IMG/VR virus record: IMGVR_UViG_3300049434_000014
Location: 1 to 64,000 of that record
Strand: one strand, 5' to 3'
DNA from: a virus
Length of the DNA: 64,000 nt
The notes beneath the pieces were generated by a model. It ran no database searches, was not told where the DNA came from, and was given only the letters and a program-made list of their open reading frames with translations. Shown here in pieces: positions 1,684-28,978 of the stretch; position 1 is the first letter of the stretch, and every line of letters starts with the position of its first letter. The translations under genes were made by a program, and so were the position numbers.

Positions 1684-3165
1684 GTGTCTGAACCCTCACG
1701 TGTAGTGCTATCGGCAATGTTTACCAACGATGTGACGTTGGTTGATGAAGTATCTAGGCTCATCTCTGAAGCGCATTTCATTGATCCTACGTTGCGTAGT
1801 TTGTTTCGTGGTGCACTGGCTTTCCGTTCCATTGCTGATGGTGTGTTGACGTCTACGGCTGTGTCGGATCTTGTGTCCGGCTCGGACGCGGGCACGGCTG
1901 CGTTGGTAGTGGAGACCTTTGAGGCGTTGGTCGCTTCGCCTGCTACGGCTGCGGATGCTCGGTGGGCGGTTTCTCGGCTGAGGGCGGATCGTGAGCATTG
2001 GCTTACGCAGACTGCGTTGGCTGATGCCACCGAGATTCTTTCCGGTTCGGTGGCCGACGACAAAGCCGATCGGGTGTGGGCTGGGCCAGCGGATGCTCGG
2101 GAGTGGGCGGCTGCTCGGATTGCTGAGATTGCTACGGAGACGTCTATTGATTCGTCTCCCGCTGGTGATGTGAGTAAAGAAGCACAGGATGTCATTGCTG
2201 CCTATGTCGCGGCTCGCGATGAGGATCGGTCCCGTCGTCCTCGGTTTGGTCTAGGGGTGCTTGACGAGGTCACTGGGGGCCTCGGACCGGGTGAGCTGGT
2301 CGTTGTCGGTGCTCCGTCAGGGCTTGGCAAGTCGCACACTTGTGTGCATCTTGCTTACGAGGCTGCGGTGCGTCAGGGGCTGTCAGTTTATTTCGCTACG
2401 TCGGAGACTGTTCGTTCGGTGGTGCGCAGTCGAATCATCGCACACCATTCTCGTCACGAGAACTTCACTGAGGAACGAGAGTCGTTAGGTCTTGCATTCG
2501 GTTTGGATTCATCTTTGATTTCGCGTGGCGGTCTCGACCAATCGCACATGCCGTTTTTCGCCCGTGTCGTTTCTGATTTCTCTGCGGTGTCTGGATCCTT
2601 GTGGTTAGCTCAGGTTCCGCATGGTCAGACGGTGTCGGTGTTGTCAGCGCAGGTCGACGCGCGTGCTCGAGCGCGTTCTGTGGATTTGGTGATCGTTGAT
2701 TACTTCGCTTTGTTTTCGGGCGGTAAGAGGTTCCCGTCGAGACGTGAAGAGCTTTCGGAGATTATTCTCGCGGGTAAGCATTTCGCGGTTGATCACGCTA
2801 AGGGACGCGGCGTGCCTGTTGTTACGCCGTGGCAGTTCAATCGACAGGCTAAAGAGGAGATGTTGCGGTCGGGCTCACTAGAGCTTGACGGGCTCGCTGA
2901 GACTGCTGAGATTGTCAATACTCCTGATATGGTTTTAGCGCTGGCTCCTGATGGCGCGCGTGAGGGACGGTTCGCCAATCTAAAGCTTGGTGTGTTGAAG
3001 AATCGTTCAGGTACTGTTCTTAAAGATGGCGATGAGATTGGGTTACGTGTCGACTATGCGACGTCGCATTTCGCTCAGCGGATGGGAGTCGACGTGAATG
3101 GCGCAGCATATGTTTCCAACGGGTCAGGCGATGTTGATAACGCGCTGGCTGCGTTGCTCGGGTAG
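1684..3165 (+). CDS. dnaB: DnaB-like replicative helicase
   Basis: Walker A GAPSGLGKS, Walker B LVIVDY, PWQFNR, KNRSG arginine-finger motif. Confidence 0.9.
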   Translation: MSEPSRVVLSAMFTNDVTLVDEVSRLISEAHFIDPTLRSLFRGALAFRSIADGVLTSTAVSDLVSGSDAGTAALVVETFEALVASPATAADARWAVSRLRADREHWLTQTALADATEILSGSVADDKADRVWAGPADAREWAAARIAEIATETSIDSSPAGDVSKEAQDVIAAYVAARDEDRSRRPRFGLGVLDEVTGGLGPGELVVVGAPSGLGKSHTCVHLAYEAAVRQGLSVYFATSETVRSVVRSRIIAHHSRHENFTEERESLGLAFGLDSSLISRGGLDQSHMPFFARVVSDFSAVSGSLWLAQVPHGQTVSVLSAQVDARARARSVDLVIVDYFALFSGGKRFPSRREELSEIILAGKHFAVDHAKGRGVPVVTPWQFNRQAKEEMLRSGSLELDGLAETAEIVNTPDMVLALAPDGAREGRFANLKLGVLKNRSGTVLKDGDEIGLRVDYATSHFAQRMGVDVNGAAYVSNGSGDVDNALAALLG

Positions 3166-20574: not shown

Positions 20575-21846
20575 GTGGCGACTGCTACTCTTGATGATAT
20601 CCTCAGTAAAGCTTACGAAGATGCTGGTCTCGAAGAGGCTGACGTTTTATCGGATAAGGGCTACATTCCTTCAGGCAATCTTGCTCTCGACTTCATTCTG
20701 GGCGGGCAGGGGTTCCCTCGAGGCCGCTCCATTGAGCTTTACGGATTGTCCCAGTCTGGTAAGACAACTACGGCTGCGATGGTCGCTGCTCAAGCGCAGA
20801 AACTCGGGCTACGGGTTCTGTACCTAGACTTTGAGCAGGCACTGGATGAGCCGTATCTTAACGCGCTGGGCGTTAACACGCGGGATCGTCGGCTGTTCGT
20901 GCCCTTCCCTGCGTCCTCGCTCGAGCACGGCGCGGAGGTGGCGACTCAGGTGGCCAGGACGGGCGATGTGGGGCTGATCGTCTTTGACAGCGTGCCCGCC
21001 ATGGTTCCGCGTTCGTCTGCAGAAGAAGACAAGGACTCGCGGACGCTGGCGATGGAGCGGGCTCGGCTGTTGGGCAACCTGCTCGCCAAGCTCAATCCCA
21101 TTCTGGCTAAGACTGGCACGTGTGCCATTTTCATTAACCACATTCGTGATGTTATTGAGACTGGTCCTACGCGTCCTGGTATGCCTAAACGAACCACCAC
21201 TCCAGGTGGCACGGCGCTGAAGTTTTATTCATCGGTGCGTGTGAAGTTCTCTGTCGTGAAGACATGGAAAGCCGATCGTGAAGATCCGTTGACTGGTGAG
21301 AGAGTTTCTGATGCACACTCTGTCACTTCAAAGGCAGAGGTGACGAAGAATAAGCTTGCGGCTCCTTATCAGACTGCTGAGTTGTATTTGGTGTTGGGTA
21401 AGGGATTCAATCAGACGTGGTCTGCGATGCAGGTGTTGGTTGGGAACAAGGTTGTCAAGAAAGCCGGTGCTTACTTCCAGTTCCCACAAGATCTTTACCA
21501 TGCCAACATGACTACGGGCGCTAAGGGTCCGTCCATGCAGGGGTTGCAATCTGTACTTGATTTGGCTGAGTCTTTCCCGGAGTGGGGCGAGTTGTTGGTG
21601 TCTCGCGCTCTTGCTGTCTTGCCTTCGGAGAAGGTGACGATTGCTCTGCCGGATCTCGAGTCGGGTGGGGAGGTTCCTACTCCGTCTGATGAAGACATCA
21701 GCCTAGTTGGCGAACCTTCACCTCAGGAGCCTGTTGTCTCGGATCCCGAGCCAACGGTTCAGTTGCCTGTTCCTGCACCGCCCGTGGTGTCGGGGAATGG
21801 ACAGACAATTCGGTTCCTTCGTCCTCCTAGCGGTGTGAGCCGGTAG
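20575..21846 (+). CDS. recA: RecA recombinase with Pro-rich C-terminal extension
   Basis: ELYGLSQSGKTT, IVFDSV, IFINHIR, TTPGGTALKFYSSVR, KNK. Confidence 0.95.
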   Translation: MATATLDDILSKAYEDAGLEEADVLSDKGYIPSGNLALDFILGGQGFPRGRSIELYGLSQSGKTTTAAMVAAQAQKLGLRVLYLDFEQALDEPYLNALGVNTRDRRLFVPFPASSLEHGAEVATQVARTGDVGLIVFDSVPAMVPRSSAEEDKDSRTLAMERARLLGNLLAKLNPILAKTGTCAIFINHIRDVIETGPTRPGMPKRTTTPGGTALKFYSSVRVKFSVVKTWKADREDPLTGERVSDAHSVTSKAEVTKNKLAAPYQTAELYLVLGKGFNQTWSAMQVLVGNKVVKKAGAYFQFPQDLYHANMTTGAKGPSMQGLQSVLDLAESFPEWGELLVSRALAVLPSEKVTIALPDLESGGEVPTPSDEDISLVGEPSPQEPVVSDPEPTVQLPVPAPPVVSGNGQTIRFLRPPSGVSR

Positions 21847-23079: not shown

Positions 23080-23094
23080 TACATGTCAGTTCCC

Positions 23095-23130
23095 AACAGG
23101 GAGCATGCCCTTCCGGGTGTGCTCCCTGTT
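23095..23130 (+). terminator. 16-bp hairpin after DUF932-like gene
   Basis: AACAGGGAGCATGCCC-TTCC-GGGTGTGCTCCCTGTT. Confidence 0.65.
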
Positions 23131-23430
23131 GCTATTCCTGGGTAGGACTGATCTGACTTGGAAAATTGAAGGGGGATGAAGTCTTGAGTAATGACTCCAG
23201 TTCCGTGGGGCGAGGAGAGGTTGCAGTTAATGATATGCGTGCACGGATTGAAGCAGGATGGACCTTTGATCAGCTTTGGGACCGCTTTGCGTTTGCTGTG
23301 GCTGGAGCGGGGTTTACGTACGACTACGCATGCACTCGATTGGAGACTCATTCTGAAGTCGACAATTTCGACACCGCATACCAAGTTGCTTGAGCATCGT
23401 CTTCATGTAATAGAGATTGATTAAGGAAGG

Positions 23431-24228
23431 GTGATTGTGAACTGGCCCCGGTTGCGCGAACGAGCACCGTGGATCGCTCGCGATGTGTTGTGGGGCGGGC
23501 AGGGTGTCGTCCTCACCACCGTGAGTGCGTATTACTCGCTGAAGTGGGCGCTGGCGCACGGGTTTCCTTCGGTGATAGCGGGATCGCTGTTCGTGGCTCT
23601 GGAGCTGTCTGCTCTGTTGGGCCTGGTGGTGACGGCGCACCCTCGTGATCAGCGCGCTCACGGGCATGCTGTGGCTTTGGTGATCGGGTCTGCTGCGTTG
23701 GCTGCAATCGTCAACGGGCTGCAGCACGCTATGGATCGTGGATTGGTTTCTGTAACCACTCCAGGTGTCCTTCTCACGGGATCGGTAGTACCGATCATGC
23801 TCGCTTGGTCATCGCACGTTGCTCGTGGGATGGCTTCTCGACCTAGTCGCGAACAGGCGAGTGTTTTAGAACCGGTGGTGTTGGATTCTCAGCCGATTTT
23901 TCCTGAGGTTGTACTTGCCGAGTCAATCTCTGTCGGATCTGATGTCCCGCTGTTTCCCACCGTTTCTGCTCCGGAGCCAACTCCCGTAGATAAGATCGAG
24001 ACTTCAAATGAGGAGATGTCTCCAGCGGAGTATCTGCTCAATGCGTGGCGTTTCGGTAGGAGAGTTGAAGCACAAGAGCTTTACGCTCAATTCCCGAATC
24101 GGAGACGAGAATCACTGAGATCGGTGATGTCTACCACGCGGAAGAAGAACCCCGAGCTGGAGCCTCCGGTTCGGATCGTAAAGGAGGGCCAGAATGGCAG
24201 GGACGCAGAGCGCGGGCAAGCTGGCTGA
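23431..24228 (+). CDS. DUF2637/Spd-like multi-TM spread protein
   Basis: Four N-terminal TM helices (S.....A...G, AAIVNGLQH, VVPIML), Pro-rich linker; directly upstream of traA/traB-like genes. Confidence 0.55.
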   Translation: MIVNWPRLRERAPWIARDVLWGGQGVVLTTVSAYYSLKWALAHGFPSVIAGSLFVALELSALLGLVVTAHPRDQRAHGHAVALVIGSAALAAIVNGLQHAMDRGLVSVTTPGVLLTGSVVPIMLAWSSHVARGMASRPSREQASVLEPVVLDSQPIFPEVVLAESISVGSDVPLFPTVSAPEPTPVDKIETSNEEMSPAEYLLNAWRFGRRVEAQELYAQFPNRRRESLRSVMSTTRKKNPELEPPVRIVKEGQNGRDAERGQAG

Positions 24229-24622
24229 GATTGGCCAGTTTGACTTCATGGAGGAAGACGACTACCGAAACTGGACTAAGGCTGTCCTCGACTTGCAGAA
24301 GAATCTCATACGAGAGTTGGAGATTTCTCGTATGAACTTGAAGAGTCTTCTGGAGCACACTCCCACCGCTACTGATGGTAAGTCCATCAAGAATATCGGT
24401 GCGAGTAAGCGTGCTGCGCGGGCGACTGATGCGAAGTTGGGTCGTGCGTCTCAGGCCATGGCTACGTCGATGGGCCAGATCCGGGGTGCGTTTGCTGCTT
24501 TCGAGAAGAACTACCTCGGTGAGGTGCCTGCAGCTAAGGGTGGTAGCGCTAATCAGGGTATGCGCCTGAATCGCAATCAGCGTACGCGACGTACCTCCAC
24601 CAATTCGAATTCCACTCCGTAG
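24194..24622 (+). CDS. actinomycete plasmid TraA-like protein
   Basis: F..EDD.R.W...L..ELE....L..LL; RAAR....KL.RA...A.F...Y pattern; upstream of traB. Confidence 0.6.
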   Translation: MAGTQSAGKLAEIGQFDFMEEDDYRNWTKAVLDLQKNLIRELEISRMNLKSLLEHTPTATDGKSIKNIGASKRAARATDAKLGRASQAMATSMGQIRGAFAAFEKNYLGEVPAAKGGSANQGMRLNRNQRTRRTSTNSNSTP

Positions 24623-24648
24623 TACTAGAGAAAGGTATGTGAGCAGCA

Positions 24649-26925
24649 GTGGGCCAGACGGCAAGTAAGATTCGGTCGGGTGCGTCAGCGGCTCGGTCGA
24701 GGCGTAAGTCTGCGTCTACTGCTGCGCATACCGAAGCACAGAATGCACTGTATGTGGCCCCGTGGGCTGTGTTGGTGCTGATCGGGATCCTCGGGTCGAT
24801 CCTGCATGTGATGTGGGGCGGTTCGTCGTGGGAGTTGCTGGCTGATCTCGGGATGGCCCTTGCGACTGCCTGTGTGGCCTACGCCGGGTATCTAAACACT
24901 CGGGCGCGTACTTCTCTCGCCTTGGGTCATACGATGGCTACGATCGTTCTGACGGGCGGTTGGCTGATTCTGTGCTCAGCTACGGGTCTGGTGCATCTTG
25001 AGGCGGTGTCGTGGGCGTGGTGGCGGATGCCGATGCCCTCGCGTCCTACGCTTGATCTGTACGTGTTGGGCGGCATCTCGCTGTGCGTGGCTTGGAATAT
25101 GCGCCAGGGTGTGCACGCCAAGGAGGCTAGGGACCGCGCCGCGCTCGGTGATGTGATGGACGAATGGGGCGAGGCCGGCCATCCGGGTGTGCGCGGCAAG
25201 CTGAAGAACAAGAATGAGTACTTTGACGAGGGCACGCTAATCATACCTCGTGGCGATACTTTGCAATCATTGCAGAGCAGCATTAAAGCTATTGAGTCCG
25301 CTCACGATTGGCCTCCAGGTTCTCTTACCTTGCTTCCTAAGGGGCGCGGGGTGTCGTCTCGGTTGGTGACGGCTCGTAGGATGAAGCGTGACCCGCTAGC
25401 TGACGCTGTGCACTGGACTGGTGTAGAGACGAAGCCTAAGCTCAATTTGTTTAGTCCCATTAAAGAAGGGATGCGAGCTGACGGCGTTGTCTCTGAGCTT
25501 TACGTTGCGACGTCTACTGGTACGAAGCACTGGCTTGTTCAGGGAATGAGTGGTTCCGGTAAGACTTCTGGACAGGCTCCAATACTTCTCGAGTGCGCGA
25601 ATCGCGGAGCTGTCCAGATCGTTCTGGATACTGTTTCTGCTATTCAGATGTTCGGCTCGCTGGCTCCTGCTCTGCAGTGGTTGATCCCCGACAACGGGTT
25701 GGCCAACGCGGTGCTTAAGCGACTGGCTGATGTGGTGTTGACGGCACGGATGGAGCAGCTGGCTCGTGAGCGCAAGATGGTCTGGGATCCGTCTTCGAGT
25801 TTGAAGCTGTTGCGGATCCACATTGAGGAGGCGTGGGATCTTCTTGATGCTGATGAGCTGATGGCTATCGCGGTGACGGCTCGTAAGGCTGGTGTGCAGC
25901 TTCTCATCTCGCTGCAGCGCGCTTCGCACGATCAGCTGAACACGACGGTTCGTGAGCAGTTGGGTACGCGGTTGTGTTACGGGTTGGGCGGTCAGTTCGG
26001 AACGATGATCCTCGATGATGAGGTTCTTGATGCTGGCGCTAATCCGGTGCAGTGGAAAGACGAGCAGCCTGGGATGCATTATCTGACTCGCGGCGGTTTG
26101 TCGATCTCGGAGAAGGCAACGCCTACGCGTTCGTTCTTTGATGGTGGCAGGGTGAAGTTTGCTGACGTCGCGGAACAGGTCGCACCACGCATCTCTGAGA
26201 TGGATGAGATTACGGCTAACGCGTTCGGTCAGTTGTGGGTGCAGCGGATTGCTCCGGTGGATCTGGTTGCACAAGCTCAGGGTGTTCCGGCTCCACGGAG
26301 CAGCAGCGGATTGCTTGTGCCAGCGTCGGCTGTTGCTGCGCCTACCCCAACGCATCCGGCTCGCCAGATGGCCACGGTGGGTGTTGCTGGTGGTGCAGCT
26401 TTGCGGGTTGTCTCAGCGATGCTTGATGACGATGATCCGGATGACGTTGATCCGGATGGCGTTGATGGTGTGGACCTTACGGGTATTAATGATGAGATTG
26501 ATGAACTAGGTGAGGAGGAATTGACGGTGTGCATTAGTCAAGATGGGAGGGTGGTGACGTTCTCGGGCGACGGGCTCCCTGATGAGCACATCGTTTATAC
26601 CGATATCCTTCCTGCTGAAGACGAGGATGCTGAGTTTGACGATCCTGATCTCCCGATCTCGGATCGTCCTGATGGGCGTCCTCCGCTGAAGTTGGGTGAT
26701 GGTACGAAGATCCCACGTGAGCATTTGACGCTTGCGATGGAGCAGAAGCTCGCGGAGATACTTGCTTCAAGTCAGTCAATCATTAATGGTACTGACTTCA
26801 TCGATGTCATCACTGCGTCCGGGTGGGCACGTTCGAATATGTATAAGTACTTCGAGCAGTGGACGCAAGAAGCGAAGTTGCACAAGCTCGGTGATAACAG
26901 CGGATGGTTGATTGTTCGTAGCTAG
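24649..26925 (+). CDS. traB: TraB-like FtsK/SpoIIIE-family DNA translocase (Streptomyces plasmid type)
   Basis: N-terminal TM helices ending DLYVLGGISLCVAWNMR; Walker A GMSGSGKT; Walker B IHIEEA; RKAG..L.ISLQR; acidic linker; C-terminal wHTH-like region. Confidence 0.85.
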   Translation: MGQTASKIRSGASAARSRRKSASTAAHTEAQNALYVAPWAVLVLIGILGSILHVMWGGSSWELLADLGMALATACVAYAGYLNTRARTSLALGHTMATIVLTGGWLILCSATGLVHLEAVSWAWWRMPMPSRPTLDLYVLGGISLCVAWNMRQGVHAKEARDRAALGDVMDEWGEAGHPGVRGKLKNKNEYFDEGTLIIPRGDTLQSLQSSIKAIESAHDWPPGSLTLLPKGRGVSSRLVTARRMKRDPLADAVHWTGVETKPKLNLFSPIKEGMRADGVVSELYVATSTGTKHWLVQGMSGSGKTSGQAPILLECANRGAVQIVLDTVSAIQMFGSLAPALQWLIPDNGLANAVLKRLADVVLTARMEQLARERKMVWDPSSSLKLLRIHIEEAWDLLDADELMAIAVTARKAGVQLLISLQRASHDQLNTTVREQLGTRLCYGLGGQFGTMILDDEVLDAGANPVQWKDEQPGMHYLTRGGLSISEKATPTRSFFDGGRVKFADVAEQVAPRISEMDEITANAFGQLWVQRIAPVDLVAQAQGVPAPRSSSGLLVPASAVAAPTPTHPARQMATVGVAGGAALRVVSAMLDDDDPDDVDPDGVDGVDLTGINDEIDELGEEELTVCISQDGRVVTFSGDGLPDEHIVYTDILPAEDEDAEFDDPDLPISDRPDGRPPLKLGDGTKIPREHLTLAMEQKLAEILASSQSIINGTDFIDVITASGWARSNMYKYFEQWTQEAKLHKLGDNSGWLIVRS

Positions 26926-26938
26926 TTTTCCAAACGAA

Positions 26939-26970
26939 AGCCGGACATGGGGCGGTTGACCTGTCCGGCT
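26939..26970 (+). terminator. hairpin after traB
   Basis: AGCCGGACA...TGTCCGGCT. Confidence 0.5.
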
Positions 26971-27117
26971 ATCGTCTGTCAAGGCGCTTGCATGAACGTG
27001 CAAACAGATCATGAATCGGGAGCTGTGACAGTAACAATCAGGGTTTGAGTGGGTGGGTAGGAATTGGTGTGTATCCGGTATGACTACGTCGCTATTCCAT
27101 CCTCCCTAGGAGTTTTC

Positions 27118-27237
27118 ATGTTAACTCAAATTCTCTCTGTCGCCACGTACGTCCTCCCTCTCGGGACAGCTGTTTGCCAGTGTGTTGCTGCCTGGCTTCG
27201 ACGTTCTGATAGGCCGAAGAAACGGGTAGTACGGTGA
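27118..27237 (+). CDS. 39-aa hydrophobic peptide
   Basis: TAGGAG RBS; MLTQILSVATYVLPLGTAVCQCVAAWLRRSDRPKKRVVR. Confidence 0.45.
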   Translation: MLTQILSVATYVLPLGTAVCQCVAAWLRRSDRPKKRVVR

Positions 27238-27846
27238 GTGACGAAACCTAAGCCTTTTGATACCTCTTTGTGCGGTACCCACTCAGGTGCTAAACGACAC
27301 TATCGGTTTGGACAGAAACCTTGTGATCCTTGTCGTGTAGCACATAACGAATATACACGTAAGCACATGTCTTCTAAGACTGTAAATATTAGATCTAAGA
27401 GATGTTGTACCTGTGAAAAGATGAAGTTGATTGATCAATTTACACTTCGTCGTGATGTTTATACTAGTACTTGTATAGAGTGTTCTGATAAGAGTAAGGT
27501 TGGTAGTAGAGCACGTTGGTTACTAAAACGATATGGCCTTACTGAGGAAGAGTTTGAGGATATTTTAATTGCTCAAGACTATAAATGCGGTTTGTGTAGA
27601 CGTGCGTTTTCTGAAGACTTCAAGCCTCATGTTGATCATGATCATCGCACTTTAGTGGTTCGTGGCGCTCTGTGCGCGGGCTGCAACAGTGCTCTTGGTC
27701 GTTTGGGAGATGATGAGGCTGGTCTTCAAGCAGCACTTGATTATGTACTTTTTTCTGTACGAGGTCGCTTAATAAACCCGTCTGTGACGGCGTCTAGTTT
27801 CGCTCTGTCACCCCTAGTCGAGGGTTGTGACAGCGTGACAACGTGA
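27238..27846 (+). CDS. endonuclease VII-domain protein (homing-endonuclease-like)
   Basis: YGLT..EF...Q...C..C; HVDHDH...VRGALCAGCN..LG; AT-richer than neighbours. Confidence 0.85.
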   Translation: MTKPKPFDTSLCGTHSGAKRHYRFGQKPCDPCRVAHNEYTRKHMSSKTVNIRSKRCCTCEKMKLIDQFTLRRDVYTSTCIECSDKSKVGSRARWLLKRYGLTEEEFEDILIAQDYKCGLCRRAFSEDFKPHVDHDHRTLVVRGALCAGCNSALGRLGDDEAGLQAALDYVLFSVRGRLINPSVTASSFALSPLVEGCDSVTT

Positions 27847-28028
27847 TCTTGTTTCGCGTCTCGTCAAAGATCATGCTGTCATGACAAGTTTGATCTTGTG
27901 ACAGCCTGTCATAGGGCCTCTGACCTGCGTGTGACACCGTGACAGCAAAGTAGCGCTGTCACGGCGGGATATCGCCTTGACCTGGGAGACTAAATCTGTC
28001 ACGGCCAGGGCGCCACAGGCTCTGACAG
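27783..28028. repeat. cluster of ~13 TGACA/TGACG-core (YGTGACAN-type) repeats in both orientations
   Basis: Copies at 27783, 27805, 27826, 27834, 27876 (palindromic pair), 27897, 27906, 27930, 27938, 27956, 27996, 28022. Confidence 0.8.
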
Positions 28029-28105
28029 TTGCGCTAAGAGGGGCGGTAGGACGATGCAGGCCGCTGCATGGCGGCTGCCGCCAGCTGGAGGGCTGTGACG
28101 CTGAA

Positions 28106-28978
28106 ATGATGGGCCGCACGCATGTGAAGTTCGGTGCCGTGCTGGCTCTGGGCGTCGCAGCGGCGGCGTCTCAGGTAGCGGGTGTGCTGTATGCACCAGA
28201 TATATTACTGGCTGTGTGCGAGGCGTCTGGCTTCGCTCTGCTGCCTGACATTGACTCGCGCAGCGCGCTGGCCACCAAGGCTTTCCCTCCTGTGACGCTG
28301 CCGCTGCATCATATTGTGACATGGATTCATCGCATGATTTATGCTGCGACTCGACGTGCTCACGATGAGCCGTCACGCACGGGCGGTCGGCTGAAGCCTC
28401 GGGTGAAGCGTGTTTTCGGATCGGCTCGAGTCGCTCAGGCTGTGTTTGGCGTCTCGCGCGGGTGGCGGTCTGCGCATCGCGGTATCACGCACTCGATCAT
28501 AACAGCATTCATTTGCTCAGCAGTATTGGTCGGACTGTCCTACTTCAGTCCGTGGCTACCGGTTGTGGTCATTCTCGCGGGCGTGCTGTTAGGGGGTGCT
28601 CTGGTATTTGCCGTACCGATCTTGATTATATATTCGATTGCTGCACTGGTGTCGTTTGGTTATGAGGGCATCCTTCCGCATTTAGTAGACATGGCTCCGT
28701 TGTGGGGATCGGCCATGTTCATTGGTTTGGTGTCTCACGATCTCGGTGATGGTTGTACGACGCACGGTGCTCCGCTTTGGGCACCTATCACTTGGGAGGA
28801 CTATCGCGCACCGATGCATTTCGGGACAAACGATTGGTTCGAGAAGAACGTCCTGAAGTGGATCTTTTACGTGATGATGGCTTACTTTATCGGTGTGCTT
28901 GTCTCGACGTGGTACCCCGATCTCCTGCCCGCCATCCTGCGTCTGGTGGTCGGCTTGCTGAGCGGGTTCACCGGGTAG
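28106..28978 (+). CDS. YdjM/DUF457-like membrane metal-dependent hydrolase
   Basis: MMGRTH, LLPDID, HRGITHS, SHDLGD..T..GAPL motifs. Confidence 0.85.
   Translation: MMGRTHVKFGAVLALGVAAAASQVAGVLYAPDILLAVCEASGFALLPDIDSRSALATKAFPPVTLPLHHIVTWIHRMIYAATRRAHDEPSRTGGRLKPRVKRVFGSARVAQAVFGVSRGWRSAHRGITHSIITAFICSAVLVGLSYFSPWLPVVVILAGVLLGGALVFAVPILIIYSIAALVSFGYEGILPHLVDMAPLWGSAMFIGLVSHDLGDGCTTHGAPLWAPITWEDYRAPMHFGTNDWFEKNVLKWIFYVMMAYFIGVLVSTWYPDLLPAILRLVVGLLSGFTG

Follow-up and report, generated by a model that had tools for sequence, protein, structure and literature searches.

A plasmid-type traA-traB gene pair with a clt-like repeat array in the genome of a large tailed phage

Bases 1-64000 of a 153,455-bp IMG/VR virus record (IMGVR_UViG_3300049434_000014), the stretch analysed here and referred to below as the window, contain a block of genes that resembles the DNA transfer region of Streptomyces plasmids. 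Four co-oriented open reading frames (ORFs) of 69-75, 265, 142 and 758 aa lie between two hairpins (Table 1); the last two encode homologues of the plasmid transfer proteins TraA and TraB, and an array of short repeats follows further downstream. A preliminary description of the window, made from the sequence alone, had put these genes forward as a module with which a phage might move its genome between cells without virions. Here, the proteins, the genome that encodes them and the repeats are analysed computationally, and the possibility that the block is a phage-resident version of the actinomycete traA-traB-clt system is weighed against its alternatives.

Table 1. Features in and around the traA-traB block, with positions in the window
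Feature	Position	Strand	Basis or remark
Hairpin	23094..23131	+	Inverted repeat I1, 17-nt arms, 4-nt loop, 88% complementary; after the preceding 392-aa gene
GGTAG[GT]A motif, exact copy GGGTAGGA	23140..23147	+	Named a phage promoter in the preliminary description
Small ORF, first gene of the block	23184..23393	+	69 aa from TTG 23184; 75 aa from TTG 23166
Multi-transmembrane protein, 265 aa	23431..24228	+	Hydropathy, alignment
TraA-like protein, 142 aa	24194..24622	+	NCBIfam plasmid_TraA, hhalign
TraB-like FtsK-type dsDNA translocase, 758 aa	24649..26925	+	NCBIfam plasmid_TraB, structure models
Hairpin directly 3' of the traB-like stop	26931..26978	+	Inverted repeat I3, 17-nt arms, 88% complementary
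Endonuclease VII-family gene	27238..27846	+	Pfam Endonuclease_7, E 2.7e-19; outside the module
clt-like array	27784..28002	.	GTGAC cores (nine, in either orientation) and degenerate copies
YdjM-family membrane protein	28055..28978	+	Pfam YdjM, E 2.4e-16; ORF open from 27977, likely start ATG 28055

The transfer proteins and the genome that encodes them

The 758-aa protein is a member of the TraB family in the broad sense. Its residues 34-756 align end to end with the NCBIfam profile plasmid_TraB (NF041214, profile positions 8-633 of 639, E 5.1e-63), although the score of 213.6 bits is far below the equivalog cut-off of 800 and the protein thus belongs to the wider TraB family as a distant member without being an equivalog. 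In a tblastn search of PLSDB, the TraB proteins of 57 plasmids were recovered at 25-30% identity, 44 of them from Streptomyces and pJV1 and pSN22 included, with Nonomuraea, Amycolatopsis, Thermobispora and Streptosporangium as other genera represented. The TraB of pSN22 is 29% identical to the phage protein over 545 aa (E 4e-40), from the transmembrane (TM) region through the motor. Seven Apilactobacillus plasmids were also among the TraB matches, which is unexpected for a Firmicute. Identity with a housekeeping FtsK was considered and rejected, since plasmid_TraB is the best family and Pfam FtsK_SpoIIIE (PF01580) has no match to the protein at E 0.01; a phmmer search against the FtsK sequences of the PDB reached only E 0.29.

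The protein has the three-part architecture of plasmid TraB proteins, and its catalytic motifs are intact. Hydropathy places TM segments at residues 30-117, and an AlphaFold2 model has four helices across residues 22-165. The motor contains a Walker A motif (GMSGSGKT, 299-306), a Walker B motif of the EE type (HIEEAW, 391-396) and the motif SLQRAS (421-426); Walker A, Walker B and QRAS are invariant or nearly so in an alignment of 11 relatives, and their aligned counterparts in pSN22 TraB read GMTGSGKT, FEEA and SMQRAS. The best PDB matches of the predicted motor are FtsK motor domains (Foldseek, 6t8b, E 5e-13), followed by TcpA and EccC. An acidic, disordered linker (546-680) leads to a predicted C-terminal winged helix (690-758): folded alone, the last 84 aa give a model with a pLDDT of 87 and the order helix-helix-helix-strand-strand, which matches winged helix-turn-helix (wHTH) DNA-binding domains of the GntR, IscR and IclR type with TM-scores of 0.5-0.59. 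The earlier description of the gene product as a full-length TraB-like FtsK translocase therefore holds, and on the question of TraB versus FtsK the protein groups with plasmid TraB. In the database, the gene is called from an internal Met, for a protein of 663 aa; residues 19-95, which contain the first TM helices, are conserved in all relatives, supporting the 758-aa ORF from GTG 24649.

The 142-aa protein encoded directly upstream is, on profile evidence, a TraA homologue, as had been proposed. Its own match to NCBIfam plasmid_TraA (NF041213) has an E-value of 2.9e-4 and a score of 21 bits, which does not reach the cut-off of 80 bits; an hhalign comparison of the TraA-like alignment with the TraA proteins of pSN22, pJV1 and plasmid NZ_CP108216 gave a probability of 96.4% (E 1.4e-9, 91 columns). 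Furthermore, precomputed JGI annotation assigns Pfam PF28214 'TraA-like' to the orthologues in two of the related contigs introduced below, L026 (E<=1e-5) and L027 (weak). The traA-like gene ends 26 nt before the start of traB.

The claim that the 265-aa protein is a multi-TM Spd/DUF2637-like protein has fared less evenly. Hydropathy confirms three to four hydrophobic segments in its N-terminal half, and these are followed by a conserved basic C-terminal domain, but kinship with Spd or DUF2637 (PF10935) was detected neither by Pfam at E 10 nor by a genome-wide PF10935 search, and hhalign against the plasmid DUF2637 protein returned a probability of about 1% in two runs. Among the orthologues, that of contig L028 alone reaches E 0.13 against the DUF2637 hidden Markov model (HMM). 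A language-model look-up (Atlas) did place DUF2637 as the cluster nearest to the protein (score 0.91, 198 of 256 features shared), and plasmid NZ_CP108216 has the gene order DUF2637-traA-traB, the same as the order multiTM-TraA-TraB in the phage. From the look-up and the gene position, it is plausible but unproven that the protein is a divergent DUF2637/Spd analogue.

The record from which the window is taken is a complete genome of siphovirus type (Caudoviricetes), and neither a plasmid nor a fragment. CheckV rates it 100% complete, and an exact 127-bp overlap joins its ends (1-127 and 153329-153455). An overlap of this size is the mark of a circular assembly made with k=127; the supposed 'direct terminal repeat' most likely reflects the k-mer of the assembler, on a molecule assembled as circular or circularly permuted, and does not represent the physical ends of the phage. 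GC content stays at 50-57% along the whole genome (about 54%), GC skew is constantly positive and almost all genes are on the + strand. The preliminary description had pointed to tail genes on the same molecule; PHROG matches on the contig that encodes TraB now include a large terminase subunit (TerL, a weak match), portal, head protease/MuF, major capsid protein of the HK97 type and a tape measure protein of 1872 aa. A ribonucleotide reductase (RNR) is encoded as well, and the phage has its own polymerase, RecA and tRNAs.

Among cultured phages, Microbacterium phage Magritte (133 kb) is nearest, with a capsid protein 58% and a DNA polymerase 37% identical, and the host is therefore expected to be some actinobacterium. 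Magritte has the same polymerase-RecA-gp76 backbone but lacks TraB and the module, so the block is specific to the metagenomic lineage. Within the 153-kb genome, no tyrosine integrase, large serine recombinase, resolvase, ParA, ParB or protelomerase was found, in a search that did not extend to plasmid Rep proteins. The earlier label of 'phage-plasmid' is thus unsupported, and the phage looks virulent. A repressor of the TraR/KorA type is also missing, with no GntR domain anywhere in the genome. In plasmids, unregulated traB is toxic unless traR is present, and traB-traR form a kil-kor pair (PMC4447253); a traB gene without its repressor fits a gene meant for expression in productive infection.

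The block recurs in related contigs. The order RusA-RecA-391aa-70aa-multiTM-TraA-TraB...YdjM is found again in L026 (a 150-kb JGI contig, TraB 83% identical) and L027 (an 84-kb Logan contig, 56%), while the core order multiTM-TraA-TraB...YdjM is found in L028 (a 20-kb JGI contig, 39%) and L008 (a 146-kb IMG/VR contig, 42%), and synteny of the module extends over at least five independent contigs from different samples. Within the phage genome, GC content and strand skew are uniform across the block, and no att-like direct repeats were found to flank it. An artefact or passenger, be it a chimeric assembly, a recently inserted plasmid or actinomycete integrative and conjugative element (AICE), or a decaying relic, might be suspected in a metagenome-assembled record whose 127-bp terminal overlap is an assembler signature. 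The uniform composition, the lack of flanking repeats and of an integrase, the synteny among independent contigs, catalytic motifs that are intact at 38-85% identity and a homologue with an intein in its P-loop make any such origin highly improbable. Chimeric assembly and recent plasmid insertion, the first of which had been raised together with an inserted plasmid bearing att ends in the preliminary description, are ruled out by composition, absence of flanking repeats and conserved synteny; the traA-traB pair is genuine, intact and part of the phage genome.

In a maximum-likelihood (ML) tree, the phage TraB proteins form a clade of 15 rows on a long stem with 100% support in the SH-like approximate likelihood ratio test (SH-aLRT), at 38-85% identity. 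It stands apart from both the pSN22/pJV1 group and a second clade made up of 14 viral contigs. The tree support, the invariant Walker motifs and the P-loop intein mark the phage TraB clade as an old one under constraint. With a profile as query, 313 clusters were found at E<=1e-30 among 1.84 billion representatives, and in the two sister groups inspected, the contexts were phage-like or those of mobile elements, with TraA directly before TraB. Meanwhile, the module had no match by megablast or tblastn in 50,697 phage records, among which no cultured phage has this TraB clade, and a scan of genome contigs turned up no relative. When related loci were searched, a single TraB protein as query found none and an alignment as query found 18 viral contigs. 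Contigs with TraB-like proteins of the second deep clade are L010-L022, L024 and L025 (IMG/VR).

Two homologous loci depart from the standard form of the gene. The TraB homologue P0011 (1280 aa, on a 67-kb contig) has a LAGLIDADG intein of about 445 aa directly after the GSGK of Walker A; a P-loop site is typical of inteins in constrained, functional ATPases. On a 104-kb IMG/VR contig (L009:7947-10222), the TraB-like gene is present as two overlapping ORFs of 275 and 492 aa, through either a frameshift or a sequencing error. The neighbouring RecA of 791 aa at L027:2654-5029 has a faint precomputed LAGLIDADG match that could be an intein, and inteins appear to target ATPases of this phage lineage.

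The repeat array behind traB

The array, which the preliminary description does not mention, came out of a whole-genome k-mer cluster scan and is the only one of its kind in the 153-kb genome. It has nine GTGAC cores within 250 bp, where the genome averages 0.61 (Poisson 1.8e-8) and no other 250-bp interval has more than four. The consensus of 49 repeat instances is cYGTGACAR, and a lone further copy is present at 27024-27031. A clt site directly 3' of traB (26926-27237) was considered and rejected, as that interval holds one GTGACAG copy only and the array lies behind an inserted endonuclease gene. That gene, of the endonuclease VII family, is not at the corresponding spot in L026, L027 or L028, indicating an insertion between traB and the array, and it looks like a mobile endonuclease of the homing type.

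In seven of seven related loci (this phage, L026, L027, L028, L008, L009 and L023), the traB stop is followed, at a distance of 2-941 bp, by the strongest GTGAC cluster: 2 bp in L028, 78 bp in L027, 106 bp in L026, 457 bp in L009 and 941 bp in L008. L023, with a TraB of only 27% identity, has 13 cores that begin 27 bp after the stop, and no YdjM gene stands beside them. Since the downstream gene differs in L023, L009 and L028, the array tracks traB and not the gene that follows it. Plasmids have comparable sites: six CCGCACA repeats lie right after traB in pSN22 and eight in NZ_CP108216, the clt of pJV1 consists of nine 9-bp repeats, CCGCACA[C/G][C/G] (PMC3583192), and that of pWTY27 consists of four 7-bp TGACACC repeats beside the tra gene, footprinted with the Tra protein (PMC3583192). 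A conserved clt-like array beside traB strengthens the idea of a working TraB/clt pair, and the array is a candidate for the cognate clt-like site of the phage TraB.

Variation among the TraB clades points the same way, as those outside the GTGACA group carry arrays of other words (GGTTACA, CGCTACC and CGGACAG). A Tyr in the putative recognition helix, within the pattern ...R..(V/I/L/M)Y(K/P)..., is common to all seven TraB proteins with GTGACA arrays, and the position is R or S in all four TraB proteins with other repeats. The array might instead be unrelated to TraB and serve as an operator cluster, as the promoter region of the downstream membrane-protein genes or as replication iterons. 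It is intergenic and just upstream of the next genes, it has repeats in both orientations, as is common for operators, and it lies inside a replication gene block. Such a function, which need not exclude the other readings of the block, is nevertheless unlikely given that the array stays behind traB where a different gene lies downstream, that it starts as close to the traB stop in L028 and L023 as clt does in pSN22 and NZ_CP108216, and that different recognition helices go with different repeats.

Arrays of other kinds were also seen. A second tight array of four to six CACGTGAC repeats occurs away from clt in pSN22, NZ_CP108216 and pJV1 (L030:656-715, L031:7740-7796 and L029:2898-2936, respectively), and the word CACGTGAC includes the phage core GTGAC. 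In several contigs of the second viral clade, for example L010, L011 and L015-L017, arrays of CGGACAG/CGGACAC (up to 12 copies) are found about 1-2 kb upstream of traB.

A possible route for phage DNA between host compartments

The closest known arrangement is the traR-traA-traB-clt-spd region of the Streptomyces rolling-circle plasmids pSN22 and pJV1, together with that of NZ_CP108216.1. As in the phage, a TraA-like gene is immediately upstream of a three-part TraB and 6-9 short repeats lie just 3' of traB; NZ_CP108216.1 also has a membrane protein gene before traA. Unlike pSN22 and pJV1, the phage lacks both a GntR repressor of the TraR/KorA type and a recognisable SpdA or SpdB, its repeat is cYGTGACAR in mixed orientation where theirs is the direct repeat CCGCACA[C/G][C/G], and the replicon is not a small plasmid but a 153-kb tailed phage with polymerase, RecA, RNR and tRNAs. 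The clt word TGACACC of pWTY27, whose FtsK-like Tra protein is named TraA, overlaps the phage GTGACA[C/G], and several phage copies read GTGACACC; the likeness is one of repeat word, and pWTY27 itself is small, of the theta type, and has its repeats in direct orientation only. In the model for pSVH1, TraB forms a hexameric pore, its C-terminal winged helix reads 8-bp repeats and a complex of Spd proteins serves the spread across cross-walls (Vogelmann et al. 2011; Thoma et al. 2015, PMC4447253); the phage has a different repeat word and no detectable homologues of SpdB2, SpdB3 or Spd79.

As for DNA binding, direction of pumping, timing of expression and biological role, the following course would be expected by analogy with the plasmids. 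TraB would form a hexameric channel in the membrane, as proposed for pSVH1 TraB, its winged helix would dock on the cYGTGACAR repeats of the phage's own dsDNA, and ATP hydrolysis would drive that DNA through a membrane or septum. Help would come from the TraA-like protein and possibly from the multi-TM and YdjM-like membrane proteins. Since neither genes for lysogeny or plasmid maintenance nor a kil-kor repressor were detected, the phage would produce the pump in the course of productive infection, most likely in order to pass replicating phage genomes, without virions, to neighbouring connected host compartments or cells.

A motor of this kind could, instead of transferring DNA laterally, act in the manner of FtsK or SpoIIIE and move or rescue phage DNA across closing division or sporulation septa into daughters or spores, in a carrier state. 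The phage TraB shares with these proteins the motor fold, Walker A and B, the QR(P/A)S motif and, in the model, a C-terminal winged helix of the sequence-reading type, here combined with a localised array, and its gene stands among polA, RusA and RecA. The family assignment to plasmid_TraB in place of FtsK_SpoIIIE and the pairing with TraA, a plasmid transfer protein, speak against septum clearing, as does the form of the target, which is a single local array and not the dispersed, skewed motifs (the polar KOPS/SRS) that guide FtsK and SpoIIIE; this role is considered unlikely. Host manipulation is a further alternative, in which a Kil-type TraB, toxic when unregulated and a cause of growth retardation visible as pocks, would arrest the host envelope or make it permeable, or else keep out or expel the DNA of competing plasmids or phages. 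In plasmids, traB and traR are a kil-kor pair (PMC4447253), and in the phage, the GntR repressor is missing and membrane-protein genes flank traB. A pure Kil function, however, would not need a winged helix and a cognate-looking array conserved across lineages that are 27-85% identical, and the ATPase motifs are strictly conserved; it is thought quite unlikely, slightly more so than septum clearing.

Transfer of phage DNA by a phage-resident actinomycete plasmid traA-traB-clt system, virion-free spread of the genome included, is given about an even chance of being the correct account of the block at 23140-28060. Several observations weigh against it. Besides the TraB score well short of its equivalog cut-off and the missing DUF2637/Spd match of the multi-TM protein, the host of Magritte, Microbacterium, is unicellular, and intramycelial spread would not apply to a unicellular host. 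The array repeats lie in both orientations, unlike the plasmid clt repeats examined, which are all direct; the array also precedes downstream genes and could be an operator or an origin; and the correlation between recognition helix and repeat word is confounded by common descent. Furthermore, the phage is known from metagenome assembly and sequence alone.

The concept itself is not new. In the accounts of the plasmid-phage pZL12/phiZL12 (Zhong et al. 2010, J Bacteriol 192:3747) given in PMC3583192 and PMC4487206, a tra locus is required for transfer, with a main tra gene and two genes next to it needed, so that by description virion genes and an actinomycete-type transfer locus share one replicon there, as they do in the phage. 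By the same kind of comparison, pZL12 and its relative pSLE1 differ from the phage in being plasmid prophages of about 86-90 kb and 69% GC with ParA/ParB (PMC4487206), whereas the phage has 153 kb and about 54% GC, and no ParA/ParB, integrase or protelomerase was found in it. Thoma et al. (2015) also remarked that SpdB2 homologues on actinophages might help to spread phage DNA (PMC4447253). A search of the literature for TraB in virulent phages found no paper. Of the suggestion that this is a new system, the general idea thus has precedents, and what is new is the setting in a large phage without detectable lysogeny or plasmid functions or a repressor, the distinct deep TraB subclade and the distinct repeat word across that subclade. 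The contrast with pZL12 matters because, with none of those functions found, the pump would work during productive infection.

A bolder claim is that a lineage of apparently virulent actinophages of about 150 kb regularly employs, within its lytic programme, a plasmid-derived TraA/TraB pump together with a clt-like array of its own, and drives replicating genomes into adjoining host compartments or cells by a conjugation-like, capsid-free route; this is possible but doubtful. If it were true, one adsorption event would seed several infected units. Should the pump act on DNA of the phage itself, the virus would have a second, particle-free route of spread comparable to the cell-to-cell movement of plant viruses, and views of plaque growth, burst size and the containment of infection in filamentous actinomycetes would change. 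As a compact test system, with one motor, one small partner and a site of 220 bp, the module could also be used to study how TraB winged helices read repeats, and it might become a tool for DNA transfer in actinomycetes.

Neighbouring genes and expression signals

The block stands beside replication and recombination genes (polA, RusA and RecA), with RecA encoded upstream at 20575-21846, where the preliminary description had also placed recA. The small ORF at the start of the block has no Pfam or PHROG match and has orthologues of 70-72 aa in the same place in L026 and L027. The YdjM-family gene is the usual downstream neighbour, with orthologues after traB in L026, L027, L028 and L008, and may be linked to the module in function. 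From its sequence, the hairpin upstream of the small ORF could be a terminator, and it is the probable upstream boundary of the transcription unit. A scan of 19.5-30.5 kb for sigma-70 promoters and terminators performed no better than on shuffled sequences.

Phage promoter motifs had been described before the block at 23140 and 24617. The motif, GGTAG[GT]A, is real: with at most one mismatch, it has 70 matches in the window compared with 32 expected, and genome-wide there are 84 copies on the + strand and 13 on the - strand. The copy at 23140 is exact; it stands after the hairpin and has no start codon at the 6-7 nt spacing. The supposed copy at 24617 is a variant with two mismatches that overlaps the stop codon of the traA-like gene. 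Among the 84 + copies, 36 have a start codon 6-7 nt further on, and 33 provide, with their TAG, the stop codon of the upstream ORF; a ribosome-binding or coupling element would explain this pattern at least as well as a promoter would. The motif may therefore be a combined stop and ribosome-binding coupling element, instead of or besides a promoter, and from its context the module is likely to be expressed within the phage programme. Example copies of the motif are found at window positions 3160, 12279, 21841 and 28973.

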